Position numbers and translations under genes: made by a program. DNA of 64,000 bases from Polymyxa betae A26-41 (taxonomy: Eukaryota; Protista; Endomyxa: Phytomyxea), in assembly GCA_003693705.1 (NCBI GenBank), contig RBZT01000553.1, positions 17,858 to 81,857 on the forward strand. The letters run 5' to 3'. Below, one piece after another: positions 35,526-64,000 of this stretch (positions are counted from its first letter, which is position 1; every line of letters begins with the position of its first letter). A model generated the notes under the pieces. The model ran no database searches and was not told where the DNA came from. It saw nothing but the letters and a program-made list of their open reading frames with translations.

Positions 35526-38335
35526 ATGAGCGATTCGGATCTGGAATCAGAGAACGTTTCGTTTCGTAAACGAAAGGGTCGCGGTTCCGATGATGATTCC
35601 AGTTTCACCTTCAATGAAATTGTCTCGGGAGATACTACCTCGGGCGAAATTAGCTCAGGCCAAAGGAGGCATCGGAGGGCTCTGAAACGTGTCAGGGGCG
35701 AAATTTTTAGCCCGAGGAATAATCAAGGCAATACGGCGGACGACGCGATTCAAATCGTCTCAGATGATGAAGCAGCTAATGGGCAGACCAACGGTAGCAA
35801 CAATGGTGAATTTACCTTCCAAATGGTGTTACTTCTGTATGAATTGCCAGCTAGAGAATGCATCGACAACGGAGTCGTTTATCGAAATCAGAAGAAACCC
35901 TTTAAAAATCGTGTGGAAAGTCCCGAAAGTGCTTTGGGGAGGGATTGTGTCTGGATTCGCTATGGAGAATACACCGCATATGACGGTGACGCTAATGAAA
36001 GAAGCTTTTGAATTCAAATCTACCGATGAAGTAGGGTTATCATTCTTTCATTCTGTTTGCCTTTGATGGAGATTGTCGCAGTCAATTGGCTTGTGCGTTA
36101 GTCTGGCTGACAGATTGAAGCCATTCGAAGATATCGCTTGTAATACAATCCACTCGCCGTATTTCATCGGTATGCTATTTCGTTTTCGAGAGATGGCCGC
36201 TATGCCAATCAGTGAGCTCTAGCGTTTAGGCCTCGTCGTGGCGTTTCAACCCTTAACTTGGTCAATACCAGCTCAGATTCCGGTTTCGATCAACGTTATA
36301 TCGTCATTTTTTTCGAGCAAGTCGACGAGCCCAAAGCCATGCAGGTGATCGGGGCAATGGAGAAAATGAGTGCAAAAGTCGAAGGGGTGATACAATTTCT
36401 AAAGCCGGAAGATCTATCGAGGTCTTTTCTCTCGATTTATATTTTCTTCATTATTTGCCAACGTTCCATTCAGATATGATAATATTCACCCAAGACCAAG
36501 GCGTGGGAGGACGCGGGCTGCCACTCAGAAGACACTGCTGTACGACCACAGTTTGACTGGAAATATCGTACCCGGTTGTTTGTTTCGTTTCCCTTCAGAA
36601 TCGTTTTACTGAACCGCTTTCAATCGCAGAAAGGACGACCATCTTGCAGTATCCAATTCAAGCCACGACCGGCAACCGAATTACGCTCACCGAGGATGAT
36701 CTGGACGTACTGGATCCGGAGAATTTTCTCAACGACTCCATCGTCGATTTCTATCTTCTTTATCTAAAAGTTTGTAACGTGGCTCGATCTCATTCGAAAT
36801 TGTAATGGGCCTTAGGATCACTTTAATTGTGAGCGTTTCCATATATTCAATTCGTTCTTCTATAAGAAGTATACGAGCGCCGGCGCCGCTCCGCAGGCCG
36901 GGCAAACAGAAAGTTACAAGGCCGTTAAGAACTGGACCCGAAACATTGACTTGTTCAAGAAAGATTTCCTGATCATGCCCGTTTGCGATAAGATGCACTG
37001 GTCTTGTGTTATTGCCTGTTATCCAGGTAGTATTCAATGCTATTTGTCGACCATAATTGATGACTTGATTGCAGGCCTACTTGGGGAAATGACCGAGATC
37101 GATCCTGATGCAGTCGCATTCCCATGCCTTCTCCTGCTCGATTCTCTTGGTTCACATTGCGCCCCGAAACTCTTTCGGATGTTTCGAAACTACTTGAGCT
37201 CAGAATGGAACGAAAGGCATCCAAGAGCTGCCTCGTCGTCGGACGATGATGTGAGTTGAACATGAAGTCCATATTTTTATTGAAAGTTTCATTCAGGTTA
37301 TTGAAACGTTTCGTGCAACTAAGATCAATATGCCAGGATACGTCGTTCAAGTTCCACAACAAACAAATGGTACTTGATATTTCAATTATAGGATTCGTCA
37401 TTTATTTGAATCAGATTGCGATTGTGGCCTATTCATGCTACATTATATAGAGGAGTTTTTAGCCAATCCTTTTACTGATCTTCGCAAGTCGCAGGTTCAT
37501 AATCCTACCTGGTTCGATCCTGAAGTTGTCGTATGTCCATTTTCCACCCTTGGCTTCAGCTAATTTGTTTTAAAGGTTAATGAGAAACGTACTGTCATCA
37601 GGAAACTGGTGCTGGATTTGAGCGAGATGTGGAAAAATCCTTTTGGGATTAGTAGGACAGCAACTCCGGAGGGTGAGACCAGGCTGCCAGCTGATAGCGG
37701 TGACAAAAGCTCCAGTATCAGCATCGGTAGCGCTCCCATAACAGCAAAATCTAGCCGGAAACTAAGATGCTGCTATAGTGGCTGCTAACGATCCCGAGGT
37801 CGATGTTCCAATCGATGTCAGCAATGTGAGCGGCGACCAACATCCCATTACCAGAAATGGTAGTGTTTTTAACATTAGAGAGCAGAGGAAATTGACATTA
37901 TGATACAGTTGATGTTAAAGACATCGAAGTCGATGTTCCTGTCGACTCCAATAATTTATGCGGCGACCAACATCCCATTACCAAAAATGGTAGTGTTTTC
38001 ATGAACATCAGAGAGCCGAGGAGATTGACATTTCGATACAGTTGATGTTAAAGACATCGAAGTTGATGTTCCTGTCAACTCCAATAACTTATGCGGCGAC
38101 CAAAGCCCGAATACCAGGAACGTTAGTGCTCCCACAATCATCAGAGAGGAGACAGAGATAGAAGTGATTCTGGACTGTGAGACCAAGTTGCCTGCTAATA
38201 ACGACGATAAAAGCTCCAATACCGGCAACGGTATCACTGTCATAAGCATTAGAGTGGAGACGAAACTGACGTTTTGGTACAGTCGATGTTAAAACGCTCG
38301 ATGCCGATGTTCCAATTGACGTCAGAAATCTGTGA
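35526..38335 (+). CDS. Ulp2/SENP6-7-like SUMO protease (C48) with repetitive C-terminal tail
   Basis: FLNDSIVDFYL, HIFNSFFYKK, WTRNIDLFKKDF..P..HWS, LLDSL, VPQQTN..DCGLFML. Tail exons splice in frame to TGA at 38333-38335. Confidence 0.9.
37727..38335 (+). repeat. Tandem ~130-bp exon+intron repeat in SUMO protease tail
   Basis: 81-nt exons 37779-37859 and 37909-37989 plus similar copies, separated by related phase-1 introns. Confidence 0.9.
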
Positions 38336-49625: not shown

Positions 49626-49806
49626 ACTGTGTTTGGGCTCATTGGGTGGAACCTTGCAGTGCTGCTTCTGCTGCTGTATTTGGGCACATGGGGCGAATCC
49701 TTGGAGTGCTGACACTGCCGCTGTATTTGGGGCCATAGGGTGGAACCTTGGAGTGCTGATTCTTCCGCTGTATTTGGGGCCATGGGGTGAAACCTGAGAG
49801 TCCTGG
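49626..49806. repeat. 47-bp minisatellite, 4 copies, in divergent promoter
   Basis: Unit GCTGTATTTGGGGCCATxGGGTGGAACCTTGGAGTGCTGAxxCTxCC. Confidence 0.9.
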
Positions 49807-52259: not shown

Positions 52260-52332
52260 GGTTAGGTTCATACCAGACNNNGCTTAGTACTGGCGTGGGG
52301 GACCAGCTGGGAACCGCATGGTGATGTAACCT
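52260..52332 (+). rRNA. 5S rRNA gene, middle replaced by assembly gap (NNN)
   Basis: 5' GGTTAGGTTCATACC and 3' GCTTAGTACTGGCGTGGGGGACCAGCTGGGAA..GTGATGTAACC match eukaryotic 5S ends; ends base-pair (helix I); TTTT terminator follows. Confidence 0.82.
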
Positions 52333-52486
52333 TTTGGATTTTTTGGCTCACAAATTCGTTCGTTTTCGACATTCCAAAGTGCCCCGCAAGTAGAATCATG
52401 TCGTGTTTGCAAGGTTTTAGATTTGAAGGCGTTGAATGTGGTCAGAAACATACACTCGATTTTCGAAGAGTTTGCCTTTCTGAAAT

Positions 52487-55230
52487 TTAAGATTTAACGG
52501 CCAATTTCGGAAAGAAGTTGTACGGCTTCACGTCCAATCGTAATATCAATGATGAAGATCGTTGATTATAACACAGGACGCGAGCGGAAGTATGTTGAAA
52601 ATCGATCGAAGAAATGGCCTGCCCGCGTAGCATTCTAGATGTGGAGACCCGGATGGCTCCATTCGAAAGACTCTCGCGCTCTGCTTTGGATAATTTTTCA
52701 GACCGCGTCACTTCAGCGATATCATGCAAAACAGTGTTCCGTCTTTTCTGAAGAAAAGCATCTTGTCAGATGCCGTAAGTTGCTCAACAACAGCGATCTA
52801 ACCGAATTAACGACCCTGCTATAAACCAGTTGATTTGGCCATAGATGCCATAAGGTCATGGCGTAAATGTCGATAAGACTGTTAATCCGAAATGGTGGAC
52901 ATTATGAGGCAGTCTAAAGATGTCAAGCGAAGCGGACCTTCCCCTTTTGATGCAAATAGACTGCAGCACGATTGTACAAGAAACTCTCGGCGTCTGTTCG
53001 GCTTCCTGATCCAAGATTGAAACGATTTCATCTCGCCAATAACTTTAATTCTCTTTGAACCAAACGCTAAACGTACTCGATCCAGAGTACATCAACTCCA
53101 TCTGTCCACTTGTCCTGTCGCATCAGCGGCGATTTCGTATGACCAGTAGTTACAATGAGAAGGCAGAAGTTGCTGTTAGAACCATTTACTTGTAGACAGA
53201 TGGTCTCGGAGCGCTTGATGTTTGTCGAACAATTTCTAATCTGAGCAGATCTTGTGGCATATTGGTCAACATGGCTAGCATTTCACGATTTACGGCGTTG
53301 TTCACGAGATTCGTTCTTGTCGTGTAATCAAGACTCGCAAATACCGCCAATGGGCACGTCAGCAATGATTCCAACGCAACTGGCGATATTCCACATTTCG
53401 CTGTTCCTTTGCTATCGCTAATCTCGAGGATCACTCGCTCATGCCATCTATGAGAGAAGCTCTCTGGCAACTCTACCTATACATGAGATTAGCGTTAAAC
53501 AGCCAACAAGTGCATGATCAGACCTGTGCGATCGATATTCTGCAAATAAACATACTATACAGGATCCGCGGTCGATTCGGAAGCAATACGAGCCGGTATA
53601 GATTCGGTGAAGCCAACAGACCCAACGCATACGATAGATTATAAACATGTGATGTCGAGATCGCTATTAGTACATTTTCCTTATCGGAAGATTGCAATCG
53701 ATACAGGAACAGTGTTTGTCCTGAAGCCATGATGAGATTCGCTACAATTTCATAGACGCTTTCGAGACCTTGCTCCCATGTCTGTGATTGTACGAAATCT
53801 AATCGAATGGCCAGAGCAGCTCGTGAGGCGTCAGTTACGTAGCATAGCTGCCTTTGCCTATCGATCTGTATATCGGCATCAATGAAACGATCGTCAATTC
53901 TGCAATGGACTACATCCATGATAATGGCCGTCAGGGAGACGTTGACAACAGGCCGCTTGACGTCCAGCACCGATTTGATTGTAGGCCGCTGCCCATCGAA
54001 GTCATGGGCGTCGAATAGATCCGGATCCGAATCGAATTGCGAAGCTTGCGTCAGGTTGACCTGATACAAAATTACTAACGACGAAGGCGGGAAAGCGTTT
54101 TGTTTCTACTTGCGATAAGGCGTCGTTGAACTGGGAGGAGACGCTTGGGACGTCATCTCGACAATCGAGTTTCAGTTTCAGCGCTTCAATATCGACCTCA
54201 TTCACAACCTATGGTTCAGATGATGAATTATGAGAAAGGGGAAATATTGCAGCCCGAACCCGAACGATCGTATCATATCGGGTAATCACGATCTGTGCCG
54301 AATGCTGTGATTGTAAGAGAGACGCGTGTTCCCCGTTCAGCTCGCGGTCGAAATTCTCGATGACGACGACCTCGCCGGCGAAAACCAGCCGCGCCATACC
54401 AGCATCTTGGGCGAACGAGAACCAATGGATCTCGTTATCCGTATTTAATCCCTACGATAACAAATCAGCCGGTTTCGTAGAGAAAATCGAACAGAAAGAC
54501 TGAAGAAAATGTAAACAATCGAAAAATATTTGAAAATGACCTGTAGTGTGATACAGGTTCCCTGAAGATCAGCAGATTTGATATCACGTCGCCTGCTGAT
54601 ACGACCAACAACATGGCCATCTCTCCGCAAGATCTCATTCAGCGAATTCGCAGCGATTTCTTCCACGATCTGTTCTAACAAGGTCCAGAAATCAGGTCAC
54701 CGAGCCGTTGAGCAGAGAACGATCCGCTGACCGGTTGGCAGGATGCGATTCGCTGCGAGACGAACTCCGCCAAGGCGGAGCGTCGTCGTCTTCCATTGCA
54801 GAGCCCATTGAGCGTATCGGCGATGGATAAAGGCGGCCCTGGTTGTGATCTCGTCGATATCAGAGACGGTGGCGACCAAGGTCGGCGACGATGGCAGCAA
54901 CGGCTGGACGTTCAGGACCCGAACCCGGCAGCGATAGTCGTGCGACGATTCGTTGACGTTGCTGAGCGGCTGCCAGCGAGTCGATTGGATGGCGTCGACG
55001 ATGCTGTGAGCTTCCGCGCGTAGAATCGCCAGCGTAATCCCGGTCGTCGAATATCGCCTTATTAGGCCTAATACAAGATTCCAGGCAGCCGCCCAAGCAC
55101 TGATATTGGCTCCCTATAGAGAAGGTGAGGGTCCTGCGATCGAGGTCGTCATTGGAGCTCGAACGCTGGGGAAGATCTGCCCGATGAGTTCGTTCAAGTG
55201 CTGGCGCACGTCGGCTGACTGGATGGTCAT
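52487..55230 (-). CDS. Hypothetical multi-exon protein
   Basis: Chain of minus-strand open frames with splice signals; a weak F-box-like stretch (LTNMPQDLLRLEI) near 53250; start not resolved. Confidence 0.45.
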
Positions 55231-56618
55231 GGCGGCGGCGACGACTTGTGTCAGGAGAATGTCGTCGCCGACCAGGTTGAAGGAGGCGGATTTCGATTCT
55301 GCGCGCCAATTCTCATATCAGTATGAACCTTCATAGAGGAGATAGATACAGAGTGCGTTATATGAGGGATAGAGAGAGAGAGATTGAATCATATAGGGAG
55401 AAATCGTATGGGTGAGACGACGGCGACCTGATGGTTGATTTTGAAAAGGCAGCCTGCTTTCCATCCATGTTTGTTTTGATTTCTAGTTTTTTCATGAGAC
55501 GCGGCTCTGTCGAGAGCTGATTCTTGGATGAACTTACGAGCGATAGTTCTGTTTGTACCGAGCGTCTACAAGATGCCAGTCCAAATCTGATCGAAATCAG
55601 GCTTGGGATCCATTCCTTCCAAGAGTATCATTATCTTTAACATCGCTAAAGTAAGGCCATTGTACGTATTGAAAGCGAGCTCAAATACAAATCTGCATGT
55701 TAAATGGGTAGATGATGTAGATATTGATGTGAAATAGTTAATTAGATTGAATTTATAGGCTGAGTCAACTTTATGTAATTCGGTCATCCATCATGCTGCG
55801 CGTGCATGATCTAAGATATTAAACACACTGAAATATTTGTTCCTTTGTCTACGTCTCTGAGTTCTTGTCTCTCCCATTGAGTTTGTAAGAAATCTCTGTC
55901 CTTAGTTTAGTACTTCGTAATTTAGTTAAATGTAGATTTATAGATTATGACAGAACTTCCACCGGCAGCATTTCCATGCACTATTTCTACTTTTTCAGTT
56001 ATAAAGATTCCGAACATACCGGCTTGACGTCCAGCGCACAGACAGGTAAACGCCGCCCGAATGTTGCTGATTGTGTTGGTATCGGGGAATGAGTAGCACA
56101 GTAACTGTCGAATATCTGGACAGCGATCCCTGTCCTTGTCTCTACGACAGAGATGGCCTCTCACATTGCTTTTTGTCGTTCCGCGTTCATCAGGCTATTT
56201 TCGCCACATGGTCATGCATAGACATGGTACCGTACATAGATTTTCGGCACATTAATTTCCAGGCACAGTTTCAAGGCTGCGTTTATAGATGGATTCTGTA
56301 GACGATTTTCGCAACCTGATTTACACAGTTCATACAGTATACATAGATAACCGTCACAGTTATTTATTATATTTCCAATCCCAGATTTGTTACTTCGCAG
56401 GCAGCCTTATTCACAGAGCACAGATCTTCAGTCAAAGGGTATGGATGAAGGATCCTCTACCATTTTATTGTAAAAATTCGCTTAATGTTGGCGGTTTGAC
56501 GCCAAAGAAGTCGCTTATTTGACTGCCTTCATTATCAACAAATGCAAACATCATTTTAATGCGCCCGAAGGTCCATTCGACGCTTGTTCGGACGGCGCTC
56601 ATTCATGAGTTGAATGCC

Positions 56619-56694
56619 AGTTGAATACCATAATCCAAAAATGACAAACCCTAACCCAAAAATGACACATTGTTTTGGGTTATGGCATTCAACT
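56619..56694. mobile_element. 76-bp inverted-repeat insertion, AGT...ACT ends, 6-bp TSD AATGCC
   Basis: 22-bp TIRs with 2 mismatches; AATGCC at 56613-56618 and 56695-56700; removal restores KEQAFN of the Harbinger ORF. Confidence 0.75.
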
Positions 56695-56886
56695 AATGCC
56701 TGCTCTTTCTTATAATACAATGTACGACTTAATCTCTTGAAGCATTTATTGATGGTTGCTTACCAAAGTTAGCTCAGCTCCTTTGAAAGGACTGCAGATA
56801 AATCTGCTCACTCCATAGGCAGGATCGCCATAGATCAGATACCCGTTGGCAGCAGGCACTGTTCGAGTCTCTGCAGAATCTGGGAT

Positions 56887-57201
56887 TGTATCGGTTTGGG
56901 AACCAACTAAGCAATCTAAGCGCTTAGATTGATTAGTTGGTTCCCAAACAGATACAAAAATGTGTTCCGGCTCCTTTCGAGTCGTTCCTCAACATTCCCG
57001 AGGGCATCCTCATATCCCCAGTAGCTAAGCGCTTCGTAGTGGAATCCCGAAACCCCTCAAAAATCCTCAATCATCAGCGTGACTCGAACCCCGGACCTCC
57101 GGAGACGAACACATTTTTGTATCGGTTTGGGAACCAACTAAGCAATCTAAGCTAAGCAATCTAAGCGCTTAGATTGCTTAGTTGGTTCCCAAACAGATAC
57201 A
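56887..57201. mobile_element. 315-bp non-autonomous element with palindromic termini, TGT...ACA ends, 4-bp TSD GGAT
   Basis: GGAT at 56883-56886 and 57202-57205; removal restores RES-QILQRL of the Harbinger ORF. Confidence 0.9.
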
Positions 57202-58687
57202 GGATTCACGCATGAAATTTCTGTCATGCCTGCGATCTTCTATTGGGCCGCACATGCTAATTATCAAGCCAGGTGTTGAGATTCCTTAATGCTTCAGGCA
57301 GTGATGCCGTTTATGGCCACTGAACAGTTGGAGCTGTGATTTTTCTCCCCTTTTTTCCCACCCAGGTTGTCACATTCCTTCTGCTGACCACTTATACCTA
57401 GTTCGGATGTAAACGAGCTTTTCGTCAATTGAAGCACTCAGTCGGTTGGTTTCTCAGTTTAGAGTGTATAAAACCCTGGCCTGAGAAAAACATATCTCGC
57501 GAGAAGCCGTGGAGGTTGGTATGGAGAAAGGTTTCAAAGCAATGAATTGCAGTTCTAGCCATGGTGCGGCATCAGCCAGCCAATTCCCTGAAACTTCCAA
57601 ATAAGTCTAAGCTGATTCAGAAACCCTCGAAGCTTGCGACGATCGCCATATCGAATGGGCCTGGAAGACGAACATTTGGCTCAGATAATAAACCTTCTAA
57701 GGGTTGAACTGCAGGTCCGTTCATAGTCGCGTTTGTCAGGAGCGCACCCCACAGGAGCCAGCCTCCGCGTAACAACTTAAGCACTCTGTAATTAATAGCA
57801 TAATGCAGACTGGTGCAACGGCCGATCTGTGGTTAGCTCAGTTCGGCTAACGTCGTTCTTGAATCAACTTCTGTCTGATCTCCTACTTTCGCTCTTGTGC
57901 TTCTGTTCTTCTCATAGATTTCGAGTTTATCTCTCTTTATTTCTCCCTTACTATCAGTTGGTTCATAACAGCGTTTGCCGCTGATAGTGCAGCAGTTGAT
58001 GTTGGAGCTGCTCAATCTGCGCGAACGCATGGCCTCAATCTGTAGTTGATAATTATTTTAGAGTTCTGAATATCTGAGGACGGTGCTTGATGTTGCATAT
58101 CTGGGCCAAAAACCAAACAAGACTGAAGTGGAGCAGAACTAGAACAAGGATACTCAGGACTGAACTAAGGTGACTGAAATAAACTGAGGAGATGCTCCAA
58201 ATTAGAACCAAAACAATATCTGTGTAATATAAACCATAATGAAGTCCAAACTTGATCAGAATGATCCATTGAATCATGCATGTGTGTCATCAGAATACCT
58301 GGGAAGGTGATCACTCAACGTAACTGCGAGCTCAACAAAATTGAATCCACAAAGCACTACAGCAAATCAACTACACAAAATTTAAATAGCACTGTCATGA
58401 AGAATAATTGTGACGAGCTCGGGCGAGAAGTATTTCTCGGCCGCTCGTACGGACAAGCCTGTCGCCTGGCCGACTGCCGCTGGATTCGACCGTACGACAT
58501 CCGATCAGATGATGGATCCTGCAGGATCATAAAACGTAAAATTAGAGCCAGCAATAGAACGCATAGCCCTAGGGTTTAGTGTTAGCACCGAAATCCTATA
58601 TATCGCGAATACCCGGTTAAAAACCAAGTCCGTTACGGCAACATAGCCTCAACTCTCACCATGCATTTTTCGACCCCCGGGCTAAAT

Positions 58688-59524
58688 TAGGGTTGTTGAT
58701 CGGAACCGTTAAATCCGGGTCGGATACCGGTAGTACCGGCTACCGAAGCACATAAAGACTGAAAGTCTCAGAAAACACCCAAATTTCATTAAAACACTTC
58801 ATCTGCCATTTCAATACTTTAAATCTCATTCCCCAAATATCAGTGCACTTGAAGCTTCACGCTTTGAGTCGATGACAGTGAAGACCTGACCAATAAAATC
58901 ACGACCGCAGTTCATAGTCATCTCCACTGAGACCGATGAACCTGGGATAGAGAGTATATCTTTCCCAACTTCACTAAAACCCGATTGGATCGACATGAGG
59001 GCCGTCGCAAGGAAGGCTAAGATACTTATCAAATTCGTCCATGACCTCACCGTTTGAGAAGCAAAGATGATGGTCCCATCTGTCTCTCTTGCTTATCGTC
59101 CCCTTGGGTTTATCGGGTGTTGAACAATTTCCATTTGAAATGATTTCAGCTTTTTTGGGGTCAATCTCGGTTCCAGATGCTGAATCAGGTGATGATACGT
59201 TTGACGAAAGGCTACTGCCGGAGCTTTCACTCAACACTATGGGCTCGTAATCATTCACTACAGAATCGAAAACTCAAATCCTTTGATTGGCGCGAAGGAA
59301 AGGTGCATTTACGGGGCACAGTGGAGCGTCAGCCCTTCGCTTCCGTGTATGAAACAAGATTACAAGAAGGATTTCAAAGTCCGCCACGCAGATTTTCCAG
59401 CACTCACTATTCCTAGGCCGGTAGTGTCGGTAGTCGGGTCGGGTACCACCCATCTACCGGTATCCGACCGGGAGACTACCGGAGCGCCGGTAGCCGGGTA
59501 GTACCGGTATCGATCGGAACCCTA
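58688..59524 (-). mobile_element. Internally deleted hAT element
   Basis: TAGGGTT...AACCCTA termini, 8-bp TSD GGCTAAAT (58680-58687 and 59525-59532), subterminal ACCGGTAG repeats, and a hAT dimerisation-domain remnant (EFDKYL..DPIGF; KDILSIPGSSVSVE). Confidence 0.92.
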
Positions 59525-60167
59525 GGCTAAATCAGTCGTGGATTTCAGCTATTTAGACTCTACCATTGCACGACTCCCGTAGACCATTTATCTCCCCAAT
59601 ACAGCAGTTGATTTTGCAGAACTCTGCAACAGAACAGAGCGCGAGTCTGAGGGTGCAACCTAGAACAAAGCTTTACAGCACAACTGAACCAAAAAAATCT
59701 ACAATCTACATCATGATTCTGATACATCATCCAACGTGAATAAAAACATGTATATGAAAATGGTTTACACCTGTCCATTGATAGCAAAGAAGAGCAAGGA
59801 GCACCTCCAATGACGCGAATAAACCACCACCCAAAAAGGTCTACAATTCCCGAAATCACCAGAACAATGCACTCAAAGCGTTAACAAACTATAAACCCCC
59901 TCCAAAATTATACCGTAACAAAACTAATCATGGTGCAGCCATGATCAAAAACGAGGTCGGCACGAAAAGGAACTGCATGGACCTGATAGTGGTCCTAGAA
60001 AGACACGTAGAATTCGCCAAATTCCTCAATGACTTTGAAGTTATGGAGAATATTGAAGAATAGGGCAACGGGGATATTATCATAACAGACCTCAAACCTG
60101 ATAAAACATTTATGACATACTACCGACATAAAATCAAATTGAAATGAACAAGGATTGCCGTTCCGCT

Positions 60168-60661
60168 AATACTTTACTTGTTAGATTTAGGGATTCTGCT
60201 CAGTTTAATGCTTATGCTAATAACAATACAAATAAATCAGTTTACGCAAATTCTAATCCATTCACCAAGATTAGTTTAAAACATGTGTGGAATTACGTGC
60301 TGAACCATTAGTTGTTGATAATCAATATATGCTCGAAGAATTATTTAGAGTATATGGATTAAGAAATGATAATGATAATGGGTCTCTTGTTAAACGAAGT
60401 AATTACGCAAAAGTTGATGTTGCTGGAACAGAAGTTGCTTGGTCTTTAACATCTGGTTCTGGTCATTGCCCACAATATTATCTGGCGTTTGATTTAACTC
60501 TCAATGGTTTGAATTCTGGAATTGACCTTCTAAATGGTGGTTCATCGATATTTTCGACACAAGCAGACAATGCTACATCAAATCTTTACATTGACGCATT
60601 TTTAATTTACTCTGCTGTTTGTGTAGTAGAAGACAAGAATAATATGGAAGTAAAATACTGA
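60168..60661 (+). pseudogene. Double jelly-roll major capsid protein, C-terminal fragment (5'-truncated, frameshift ~60285)
   Basis: EPL...EELFRVYG...GSLV...YYLAFDL...SGIDL...IDAFLIYSAVCVV..MEVKY resembles PLV/virophage MCP C-termini; upstream TLLVRFR lies in another frame. Confidence 0.7.
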
Positions 60662-60719
60662 TTTATAACTATCAGATAGTATATAATAAAAATTATTTTT
60701 TCATTATTATTATATAATA

Positions 60720-61164
60720 ATGACTGAAACAAATGAAGAAATACCTAAAAAATCAAGTAAAAAAGCAGAAGCAAATAAGAAAAATTTAGAAAAGGCACGT
60801 CAATCCAGAAAAAAACGTGTATGAAGAAAGAAAACAATCTAAAAAAATTTTAGACAAAATCAAAGAAAAACACGATTTAAAAGAACTCATGAAAGAGCAA
60901 ACTGAACAAAGCGAAGAGCGCGTGGAAGTTCCAATTGAAGAACCAATAGAAACAAATGAAGAAGAGGAAGAAGTTATTATTGTAAAAAAAACTAAATCCA
61001 ATAAACAAAAGAAAAAGAAAAAAATAGTGTATGTATCGGCATCAAGTTCAGATGAAAGTGAAGAAGAGGAAGTCATTTATGTGAAACCCAAAAGGCAGAT
61101 TGATAAAATCAGAAACCAAAAACCGCAGCATCCTTTATATAAACCAATTTATGAATGGAATTAA
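60720..61164 (+). pseudogene. PLV-type Lys/Glu-rich hypothetical protein with frameshift ~60810-60820
   Basis: ATG 60720 MTETNEE..NLEKARQSRKK continues in the +1 frame to KKKKKIVYVSASSSDESEEEEVIYVKPKR. Confidence 0.6.
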
Positions 61165-61186
61165 TTTATTTATATTCTAAATAATA

Positions 61187-61969
61187 ATGAGTGATTACAA
61201 TTCAAACGATTATTTAGACCATGGAACTATCGGTCAAAACAGATATGACGGAAGAAAAAATAGGTTCGGCAAGGAAAGACATTATATATTTTCTGATAAA
61301 CCTCTGACAAATCCAAAAGTTCATATAAGAATGGTTGATACTGATGAATTAGTGAATGACGCTATTCTGAGTAGAATGGCAAACGTCACTGAGGATGGTG
61401 TTAGAATGAGAGATAATTATATATTGAATGAACCAATTGATATTAAACATTCAAATAATTCAGCAACCATTTATAAAGCACCGAAAAAAGATAAAAATGT
61501 AGTTATATATCACGATAATATCAATACAACACCAAAAGAACGATTAATTACTTGGAATGAATTGGAAAAACATCCAATTAATCCTGATAGGCGGTTGGAG
61601 ATACAACAAGCAATAAGTAAATTGAAACCAACGAAATCAAAAATAACAAACTCGATGGAATTTAGCAAGAAACAATATTTAAAAGAACATAAAGCGGTTT
61701 ATCCAAGAAAAGAAGCATACAAGAAAGAGAAAGATACTATGAGGGAAATATTAGATGACCGCTTGGTTCCAAGAGGAATTCATAATACCATAACTGATAT
61801 GTATAGTGAAATGAGAGTTGCTAATAGGAACCCACCAGGCAGAAAACCCATTGATAAAATAACAAATGACTTCGCGAATTTAGACCCAGATTCTCCTAAA
61901 AAGACCGAAGAAAATCAGCAAAAAGAGATAGCTCATTCGGAAAAAGGAATAAATAAGAAACTAAAATAA
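61187..61969 (+). CDS. Viral hypothetical protein (260 aa)
   Basis: Intact AT-rich ORF inside the viral block, AATAAT before ATG; no family recognised. Confidence 0.6.
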   Translation: MSDYNSNDYLDHGTIGQNRYDGRKNRFGKERHYIFSDKPLTNPKVHIRMVDTDELVNDAILSRMANVTEDGVRMRDNYILNEPIDIKHSNNSATIYKAPKKDKNVVIYHDNINTTPKERLITWNELEKHPINPDRRLEIQQAISKLKPTKSKITNSMEFSKKQYLKEHKAVYPRKEAYKKEKDTMREILDDRLVPRGIHNTITDMYSEMRVANRNPPGRKPIDKITNDFANLDPDSPKKTEENQQKEIAHSEKGINKKLK

Positions 61970-61994
61970 TTATTCATATAAGAATTATTTTAAT

Positions 61995-62705
61995 TTACAT
62001 TTCACGAATTACTTCATCGAAATTTCTCAATAGTCTATATTTTTTATGGTCAAATAAAAGAAAATTATATTTAACATTGGTTACTTCATCAAATATTTTT
62101 TCAAACTGCTCCGGTTCTAACCATCCACAATTTTCCTCTACAATTGCCTTTTTCTCCTTGTTATTCATGGGTTTGAAAAAGTATTTATACATTGCTAAAT
62201 CTCTGATTGAACTTGGGATTTACTTGTATCTCTGACTTAAAATCAAAACCGAAATATTACTATGACGCCCACGTGTGAATAACGATAAAATACTGCTTCT
62301 TTTTTTATTAAAGATATTATTATCAATAAAGTCTTCAAAAATAATCAAGATTGGTTCTAATTTCTGTCCATATTTTCTTAATTTTTGCTGATACTTGATT
62401 AACTCTGCTATGACATCCTTACCATCATCATCATAAATATCATGGAGCAGTGTAGCATCTAAATCATCTACCAGTTTTAATAAGGTTCCATTGATAGTGC
62501 TGGAGATTATATAGATATTGTTCTTAAAATAGCGTTTATGTTCATGACATATATTACAAGTCAATAGGGTTTTCCCACTGCTTCCCACTCCGACTAGAAT
62601 ACCATAAGACGGCCATATTTGAAAGTTAGGATGAAGGCAATATGTGGCGTCTGGCACATCGTATTTTGTCAGAACCTTTAAATTAATCTTCTTTTTCTTA
62701 GTCAT
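61995..62705 (-). pseudogene. A32-like (FtsK/HerA) genome packaging ATPase with one in-frame stop
   Basis: Walker A GVGSSGKT, IYIIS, Walker B LIIFED, LFTRGRHSNISVLILSQRY, then TAA at 62220-62222 followed in frame by IPSSIR..YNFLLFD..RNFD. Confidence 0.9.
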
Positions 62706-62750
62706 ATTAATATAACATGCGATTTTATTTATCTTGTATTAATAATAAAC

Positions 62751-63479
62751 ATGGAGTCAATTCCCTTTTACATAAATAGTAAGAAAAGAGAAAGTGGTTC
62801 TCTTGACAATTCAGACTTTTACTATAATTTCGTGTATAAAGCAAATGAGAATGCCGAAAATATGCTTAACATTGATATGCTTTCCATTCCTAAGTCCTAT
62901 TTCCCAGTCAATGACTACAATAATACTTTTCAATTGGGCATTACAAGCGTCGGCGTTACATCTGTCGTGTTAACTAATGGTGATTATACCGAGGCAGAAT
63001 TGATAAACCACATCACAAGTAATAGCGCCATGCCTATCGGCGTGTCCATGACATATTCCTCTATCTCAAAGAGATTTTCATATTTAGGTATGACTGGCAC
63101 TAATCTAATCACCAATGAAAAGCAGAAATATTTAGGGTTCAATTCGGCTGGGGTATGGCAACCAGATGTGAACGGCGTCATTGTCTCTAATGATGCGGTA
63201 GATATATCTGGAACGAATAGCATTAATGTCTTAACCGATATTGATATTGAGACATACAATAACTCCAACAAAAATAGTTATATGTTGCTCTCTGTATTCC
63301 CCAATGTTGATGCCAATGGATTTATAACATATACCTCTTCCAATTTTAGAAGCATCAAACTCAAAAATGATAAGTTGAATTTACAGAGATTTCAACTCGT
63401 GGACGAGAACCTTGACCCTCTTGATTTAAATGGACTATCATGGGACCTAAATCTCTCCCTTACATATAAGAACCAGTGA
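62751..63479 (+). CDS. Minor capsid (penton, single jelly-roll) protein
   Basis: FYINSKKR, IPKSYFPVNDYNNTF, GDYT, LGF and C-terminal FQLVDENLDPLDLNGLSWDLNL, typical of PLV/virophage-related pentons. Confidence 0.82.
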   Translation: MESIPFYINSKKRESGSLDNSDFYYNFVYKANENAENMLNIDMLSIPKSYFPVNDYNNTFQLGITSVGVTSVVLTNGDYTEAELINHITSNSAMPIGVSMTYSSISKRFSYLGMTGTNLITNEKQKYLGFNSAGVWQPDVNGVIVSNDAVDISGTNSINVLTDIDIETYNNSNKNSYMLLSVFPNVDANGFITYTSSNFRSIKLKNDKLNLQRFQLVDENLDPLDLNGLSWDLNLSLTYKNQ

Positions 63480-63528
63480 GAATTCAATCATCGTCTTTAT
63501 TGAGAAATTAATATATACCATAATATTA

Positions 63529-63759
63529 ATGTTTGGTTATTGTGATTTAGAACAATGCTTAAATCAAAAAAGTGATGTAAAGGTGTTAATTCACGAAAGC
63601 AATTTATGGCACGTAAGACATCACGATGGAAGAGAAAGATTAATTTGTAATGACTGCTTGATAATATGGAAAGCAGAAAGTAAAAAGTTAAGAGAAGAGG
63701 AGAAATTGAGGAAGAACCAGTGGGAAATCAGAAAGAAAAAGGAAATTGTAAACTTATAA
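63529..63759 (+). CDS. Small viral protein with putative zinc-binding Cys pairs
   Basis: CDLEQC...CNDC plus basic tail; AT-rich leader like its neighbours. Confidence 0.45.
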   Translation: MFGYCDLEQCLNQKSDVKVLIHESNLWHVRHHDGRERLICNDCLIIWKAESKKLREEEKLRKNQWEIRKKKEIVNL

Positions 63760-64000
63760 GATAAATTCATGATGTAAATCATTAGATTATGAATTTTCAG
63801 AAGTCATTACAATACCGAAATCTAGGCGAATATTTCTGATTGAATGAGGGGGACGTTAGAGACATATGTCTCAGAGCTGAGCACCCCAATTCTACAGCAC
63901 GACTTAAACTTTTCAATTCAACCAGAAAGGGATTCGCCTAGATTCAGTAGTTTGATATGACAAGTTCAGTGACAACGACGACTCCACGACGAAGATTACG

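Follow-up and report, generated by a model that had tools for sequence, protein, structure and literature searches.

The window, a 64,000-nucleotide stretch of contig RBZT01000553.1 from a protist, very probably contains a truncated and partly broken capsid-building module of an integrated Polinton-like virus, of which several related copies would exist. The module occupies an AT-rich block of about 3.6 kb at positions 60132-63760. Genes for a major capsid protein (MCP), a penton-like protein and an A32-type packaging ATPase all lie inside 3.4 kb of this block. An earlier note on this DNA had proposed a fragment of an integrated DNA virus, and the proposal holds: each of the three core identities is supported by search tools, sequencing contigs cross both edges of the block, and other copies exist. 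The block is ordinary by itself; endogenous Polinton-like viruses are routine in protists.

Part of the block is held by 17 listed runs of six studies, and contigs of X1-X5 were compared. The open reading frames (ORFs) and other features are given below, with lengths in nucleotides (nt) or amino acids (aa).

60131-60132, no strand: left break, where host sequence meets the middle of the capsid gene (X1 and X5 contigs)
60132-60661, plus strand: 3' remnant of the MCP gene, predicted second jelly roll (tblastn of four relatives, 63-72% identity; fold searches with relative P0014)
60720-61164, plus strand: ORF A, function unassigned, rich in Lys and Glu, split by a frameshift (ORF list)
61187-61969, plus strand: ORF B, function unassigned, 260 aa, open (ORF list)
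61995-62705, minus strand: A32-type packaging ATPase, 236 codons, in-frame stop at codon 162 (Pox_A32, PF04665; two intact relatives)
62751-63479, plus strand: probable penton-like minor capsid protein, 242 aa, open (10 relatives; fold searches; weak DUF5901 matches)
62897-62944, minus strand: GT..AG stretch of 48 nt, likely splicing of an antisense transcript (one X5 contig)
63088-63135, plus strand: GT..AG stretch of 48 nt, bounded by a 9-nt direct repeat (loose ends in X4 and X5)
63153-63201, plus strand: GT..AG stretch of 49 nt, likely a spliced-out intron (two X4 contigs, one X5 contig, no X1 contig)
63529-63759, plus strand: ORF C, function unassigned, 76 aa, rich in Cys and His (sub-threshold zinc-ribbon matches only)
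63761-63961, no strand: high-depth repeat with a fold-back of about 160 nt (folding, contig depth)

The block differs sharply in composition from its surroundings. Its guanine-plus-cytosine (GC) content is 0.313 (60130-63828) against 0.459 in the host part (1-60130), the lowest value of any 3.7-kb window elsewhere being 0.428 (mean 0.460, standard deviation 0.016), and the best change points are found at about 60075 and 63845. The abrupt switch to about 30% GC described in the earlier note is thus borne out by measurement, as is the tight packing of the genes, six ORFs making up 94% of the block. Third-position GC is 0.17-0.41 in these six ORFs, compared with 0.43-0.56 in five host ORFs. The bounds given in that note (60168 and 63800) enclose a real block but have to be moved to 60132 and 63760.

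The capsid gene enters the block in mid-course. When four relatives of 406-432 aa are aligned to the window with tblastn, the remnant corresponds to residues 252-432 of the 432-aa relative, and the 5' 251 codons are gone. The fragment had been recognized as the C-terminus of a capsid protein. Relatives and folds agree with this identity, but the remnant starts at 60132 rather than 60287 and changes frame near 60284-60290. The four relatives, found among 315 candidates, are 63-72% identical to the fragment. A model of one of them, P0014, was compared with known folds. In the PDB search, ranks 1-10 are all capsids of PBCV-1 or iridovirus. In BFVD, 12 of the 25 matches at E<=0.001 carry the name of a major capsid or coat protein. 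In VIA, the top five rows are double-jelly-roll capsid entries with Z of 7.2-8.4, and two domains are placed at about 37-222 and 235-417 of the model. The window is predicted to retain most of the second jelly roll. In the Atlas, P0014 falls with viral clusters (418-465 aa; 0.97-0.98), its recognition value being under the reliable range. The search for a jelly-roll fold, suggested earlier as a check, therefore returns jelly-roll entries first, though with low-confidence models. A double-jelly-roll MCP is indicated by the low-confidence P0014 model, by a profile link to a catalogued capsid described below and by residues 252-432 in the window.

The 242-aa ORF is intact, as had been reported, and has 10 relatives among 294 candidates, nine at 56-69% identity and one at 28%. 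The first three ranks of its model in VIA are a chain of EhV-201 (Z 6.2), a chain of PBCV-1 (Z 6.0) and the mavirus penton (Z 4.7); next come an adenovirus chain and flagellar proteins, all at Z 3.9. Both BFVD matches at E<=0.001 are unnamed (best E 5.7e-4), and 5 of the top 15 BFVD matches are named minor capsid or penton proteins. Weak DUF5901 matches occur in 4 of the 9 relatives scanned. The modelled fold makes it likely that the ORF encodes a single-jelly-roll penton or minor capsid protein, and the penton identity is favored because the gene adjoins that of the ATPase.

The ATPase gene (62705-61995, minus strand) matches Pox_A32 (PF04665) with an E value of 6.5e-10 and 39.3 bits, well above the cut-off of 22.8. 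The A32 ATPase typical of Polinton-like viruses is thus present, and the three motifs pointed out earlier are confirmed in the sequence. What had been missed is an in-frame stop at codon 162 of 236 (62220-62222). Two intact relatives, 82% identical, were found among 337 candidates; one of them was compared with 50,697 phage and 72,556 plasmid records and matched none. Together with the Pox_A32 match, this gives no sign of the grouping with cellular or plasmid FtsK/HerA proteins raised earlier. The single PHROGs match is to a terminase family (E 8.5e-8); a terminase identity was rejected, the similarity being taken as that of a common P-loop. A ciliate-type code, in which the TAA stop would be read through, was likewise rejected, as TAA terminates ORFs A, B and C and the ATPase gene itself, and as other copies have a sense codon at the stop site. 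Sequence searches of solved structures gave nothing useful for the capsid, the penton or the ATPase.

The searches of large protein collections covered these three core genes. The three unassigned ORFs noted earlier are present, but the first is split by a frameshift into frames 60720-60824 and 60790-61164. None of the three has a family match in the Pfam, NCBIfam or PHROGs scans: ORF A has no Pfam match below E 0.07, ORF B has no match in those three collections or in the Atlas, and ORF C, which is possibly zinc-binding, has only sub-threshold zinc-ribbon matches in Pfam. The NCBIfam scan of the block proteins gave no match, and no RNA family was found at 56000-64000. Stretches of 58-819 nt inside ORFs A and B (60966-61978) are skipped by X1 contigs, which suggests that these accessory ORFs differ in other copies.

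The block is joined to host DNA, and contigs cross both of its edges. The unique host flank 52305-56505 is present in X1 without a difference and in X2 with one, and both runs contain the block at a similar depth; the assembly may derive from one or the other. On the left, an X1 contig lies on 59950-60161 with no differences and at 1.04 times the depth of the single-copy flank. At the other edge, X1, X3 and X4 each have contigs that extend 47-69 letters beyond the stop codon of ORF C into the right-hand repeat. No listed contig spans the whole block. An X5 contig continues for 80 letters before 60132, and these letters read as upstream capsid codons, so another copy keeps more of the capsid gene. 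The right-hand repeat, which begins at about 63761, is represented by one X1 contig at about 10 times the flank depth and contains a fold-back of about 160 nt (63803-63961; z -3.7, reached by 0 of 200 shuffles) with perfect arms of 13 nt. The repeat, which other contigs enter from differing upstream letters, could be a small host transposon or the terminal repeat of the element. Neither a target-site duplication nor a long inverted repeat pairing the block edges was found. Of the genome of 15-30 kb, often with terminal inverted repeats, that is typical of Polinton-like viruses, the left end is lost and no long repeat pairs the edges. Immediately to the left of the break, 59785-60131 holds a decayed ORF of about 115 codons with one stop, without a Pfam match and at single-copy depth in X1.

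The family to which the block belongs is probably transcribed in both directions and spliced by the host, for which the evidence is moderate. An X4 contig skips a 55-nt host intron at 52748-52802 (GT..AG, minus strand), and X4 therefore holds RNA. X5 is RNA-like solely by its skips in the penton gene, and none of the 17 listed runs holding the block is on record as RNA. Positions 63153-63201 are skipped in two X4 contigs and one X5 contig but not in X1; the skip shifts the penton frame, and the shorter side of the joint has 25 letters. On the minus strand, 62897-62944 is skipped in one X5 contig, with a shorter side of 20 letters. The skip at 63088-63135, whose ends carry the 9-nt direct repeat, might instead be a DNA deletion or a template switch. 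GT..AG ends are expected by chance at about 1% of block positions, and none of the four X1 skips has them. The contigs show neither strand nor expression level. The earlier description of the block as intronless fits its reading frames; in the penton gene, however, stretches of 48-49 nt are skipped by contigs of two RNA-like runs. As X4 matches the window exactly over 63297-63828, and X5 over 63201-63728, the copies sequenced include this one or one identical to it. A literature search found nothing on point about spliceosomal splicing of Polinton-like virus transcripts; in the part of PMC12220804 considered here, only group I introns are reported.

Intact relatives of the block genes, 56-82% identical, are present in public assemblies. 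Relatives of different genes have equal longest-contig sizes (8011 nt for each of P0003, P0015 and P0018; 6342 nt for P0005 and P0014; 14549 nt for P0009 and P0017; 2501 nt for P0002 and P0019), which suggests that relatives of the three genes are linked and that the same module exists elsewhere. A 1.2-kb metagenome-contig locus, L001, retains a divergent ATPase/penton pair. No related locus was found in viral contigs with six protein or pattern queries, nor in prokaryote genomes. The ATPase of L001 (124-720) is about 40% identical, ends early and is without the lysine-preceding GxxG pattern at Walker A.

A profile built from the four capsids led to 47 representatives at the 50% level. The full-length ones other than P0017 are 19-25% identical to P0014. 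In an unrooted tree of 31 capsids of at least 400 aa, from which shorter ones were excluded and which contains no named references, P0014-P0017 form a clade with 100/100 support, whose stem measures 1.74 changes per column and sits in an open fork. One protein matching the profile, P0064 (E 2.9e-4; 20% identity over 377 columns), provides the link to the catalogue of Bellas et al. (2023; PMC10120064). Compared by eye, its residues 42-434 agree with the 393-aa Plasmodiophora brassicae capsid of Table S2 in that paper, and P0056 is similar to a second P. brassicae capsid in the same table. By column count, the two P. brassicae capsids are clusters 9 and 32 of PMC10120064, the latter labelled PaM2. 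A 12-protein profile including P0064 matches the four capsids with a probability of 99.85 (E 8.7e-31, 403 columns), a match that is not independent, as the 12 proteins had been found with the four-capsid profile itself.

Judged by sequence, the element in the block would be a distant member of a catalogued capsid family, outside the virophage cluster as the available part of PMC10120064 describes it. The earlier suggestion of an undescribed lineage therefore holds at the subclade level only, the wider capsid family being contained in the 2023 catalogue, and a closer catalogued relative could be present in other parts of the supplement of PMC10120064. According to the portion of that paper used here, the catalogue comprises more than 35,000 endogenous capsid genes in 462 protist genomes; its Table S1 includes P. 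brassicae and Polymyxa betae, and lists no capsid genes for the Spongospora subterranea draft. A literature search, with most subscription papers outside its scope, found no paper on Polinton-like viruses in Spongospora or Plasmodiophora and none on giant viruses in Phytomyxea. Among the papers listed, those for Polintons and Plasmodiophora brassicae deal with Paulinella, and those for plasmodiophorid endogenous viral elements deal with RNA viruses. PMC13746701 contains none of the virus terms sought.

By combining these observations, the history of the element can be outlined. A Polinton-like DNA virus likely integrated into a protist chromosome several times. According to what is known of Polisuviricotina (bioRxiv 10.64898/2026.10.13.758929, in the part considered here), the double-jelly-roll protein of the parent virus would have formed the icosahedral shell, the penton-like protein would have occupied the vertices, and the A32 ATPase would have pumped the DNA genome in. 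Integration would have been carried out by an integrase encoded outside the window. The present copy would then have lost everything to the left of capsid codon 252 and decayed. As assembled, the 5' loss, two frameshifts and the stop would make it unable to form particles alone; other copies would retain more of the capsid gene. Low-level transcription of the family in both directions is probable, and the host spliceosome probably excises short introns from penton transcripts at chance GT..AG sites. A bolder version, in which the capsid lineage is undescribed and escaped previous surveys, intact full-length copies are still present in the genome of a plant-associated protist, possibly a plasmodiophorid, and the host spliceosome disables or reshapes penton transcripts via 48-49-nt introns in both directions, is conceivable but doubtful.

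Several points weigh against a decayed, multi-copy Polinton-like module or limit the evidence for it. Neither a polymerase nor an integrase nor a protease was found in the window, as the earlier note had already stated. None of the 34 capsid relatives (0 of 4 and 0 of 30) matches a Pfam capsid family. The capsid model is that of P0014 and not of the remnant in the window, and it is poor (mean pLDDT 37.6); the penton model is weak (47.8). TM-scores of the two are 0.2-0.4, and the best Z values in VIA, 8.4 for the capsid and 6.2 for the penton, fall in a range that the tool calls common. The left-edge X1 contig has 30 letters on the viral side under a tool rule of 31, a short overlap that is expected because a unique contig meets a repeat there. 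The X1 contigs of the block have 1.6-2.7 times the flank depth, a hint of copies given that depth is not copy number. In the core genes, 13 of 22 listed differences are synonymous against an expected 0.20 (p 8e-5; p 0.01 against 0.33), as counted on the best-supported 40 of 149 listed differences with the stop site excluded; mostly synonymous differences suggest divergence of the copies under selection, as expected of separate virus variants. The splice-like joints come from contigs, and their shorter sides have only 20-25 letters. Lastly, the letter at 62221 differs from the window in all four runs compared, and many stops in such elements are assembly errors according to the available part of Bellas et al. 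(PMC10120064), so the stop and the frameshifts may not all be real. The stop is either specific to this copy or an assembly error; it could be copy-specific though unseen in the runs, because contigs drop rare variants.

Another possibility is that the stop and the frameshifts are assembly errors and that this copy has a functional penton and a functional ATPase, which the host may have retained. Apart from the unseen stop letter, insertions at 60284-60285 in contigs of X1, X4 and X5 speak for it, as does the penton ORF, which is open, exceeds the other five ORFs in third-position GC (0.41) and is the most deeply covered in X1, X4 and X5. However, the loss of the capsid 5' part is also found in an independent run, copy-specific lesions would be hidden by the dropping of rare variants, one skip shifts the penton frame, and with three lesions in 3.4 kb a 729-nt gene would escape about half the time by chance. 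This possibility is unlikely. A contaminant, or a mis-join of a free virus to the host contig, is highly improbable. The sharp composition change would fit it, and multi-copy repeats abound in the window beyond about 56.4 kb, where assemblies fail and where no listed contig spans the stretch; but the single-copy-depth X1 contig passes through the left break without a difference, contigs of X1, X3 and X4 pass the right edge, and X1 and X2 hold both the host flank and the block. The contigs at the two edges give no sign of the mis-join raised earlier.

The block might also be a fragment of a larger DNA virus (Nucleocytoviricota or mriyavirus-like). The best fold matches are indeed giant-virus capsids and minor capsid proteins, the Atlas clusters nearest P0014 are most often labelled Nucleocytoviricota, two of them carrying Capsid_N in 12% of members, and penton relatives have DUF5901 matches. 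On the other hand, capsids of Polinton-like viruses are few in fold libraries, Capsid_NCLDV and Capsid_N match none of the 34 capsid relatives, the capsid, penton and ATPase genes are small and adjacent, and the family is linked to a capsid classed with Polinton-like elements in the part of Bellas et al. (PMC10120064) used here. A larger virus is thus a very unlikely source. A true virophage (Virophaviricetes), which the earlier note had also allowed, is less likely still. It would have the same three core genes, the mavirus penton ranks third among the penton matches (Z 4.7), and Sputnik and mavirus capsids are among the fold matches of P0014; but with 406-432 aa the capsids of this family are shorter than the listed Sputnik and mavirus entries (503-606 aa), and a cysteine protease is absent from the 3.6-kb remnant in the window. 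The decayed module of an integrated Polinton-like virus remains the preferred explanation.

The surroundings of the block are those of an ordinary compact eukaryote genome with the standard code, in agreement with the compact protist genome assumed earlier. The compact genes, the 55-nt intron and a GC content of 45.9%, close to the 45.7% published for Spongospora subterranea (PMC12883290), would tentatively fit a plasmodiophorid host. Genes in 1-56000 include those for a class 3 lipase, an MMR_HSR1 GTPase, cwf21, an M16 peptidase, SARAF, FAM76/LRR and MORN proteins, and the host intron at 52748-52802 is short (55 nt). Tandem arrays with units of about 130 nt and 47 nt are found at 37665-38332 and 49627-49805, respectively. 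Two near-identical palindromes of 70-85 nt, 231 nt apart and at high depth in X1 and X2, occupy 56886-57201 and look like a small fold-back transposon. The 760 nt at 58714-59473 lie between 20-nt inverted repeats and are multi-copy by depth; contigs join 59473 back to 58714-58720, and a weak hAT dimerisation match (E 0.16) is found inside.

The capsid provides a starting sequence for a subclade which shares 20-25% identity with the nearest full-length relatives and lacks a Pfam profile, so that surveys with a 23% cut-off could overlook it. The RNA skips in the penton gene, if confirmed, would show how a host with introns of about 55 nt processes transcripts of AT-rich viral inserts. Should the host be a soil-borne plant parasite, the family would also point to DNA viruses of a group for which the literature search found no paper.

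Virophages such as Sputnik and mavirus share the core gene set with the block, as well as the fold match to the mavirus penton. The capsid of the block family is, however, shorter and of another sequence family, and no protease is seen in the window. It aligns with a non-virophage cluster, an indirect sign that it is not of the virophage type; virophage capsids do not align with that cluster according to the part of Bellas et al. (PMC10120064) considered. The pPolB and rve integrase of Maverick/Polinton elements proper are both absent from the window, and Table S4 of PMC10120064 (by column count) does not give the label Mavpol to the linked clusters 9 and 32. Polisuviricotina comprise virophages, polintons, Aquintoviricetes and unclassified groups (bioRxiv 10.64898/2026.10.13.758929). 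In the available part of the same source, MCP, minor capsid protein and A32 ATPase are three of the four commonest gene classes, and the fourth, the replicase, is absent from the block.

The closest likeness is to the Polinton-like viruses of Bellas et al. (2023; PMC10120064, in the part used here). Cluster 9 of that catalogue occurs in Plasmodiophora brassicae and Polymyxa betae, and cluster 32 (PaM2 group) in P. brassicae. The capsid of the block is only 20% identical to the cluster 9 protein, below the 23% cut-off of the survey, and has its own long branch; moreover, 3.6 kb are left here of elements that usually measure 15-30 kb. The double-jelly-roll capsid of about 430 aa nevertheless belongs to the same sequence family. 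As in the catalogued elements, a low-GC block is embedded in a host contig, several related copies occur per genome, stops and fragments are seen in assemblies, and transcripts have been reported for other hosts.

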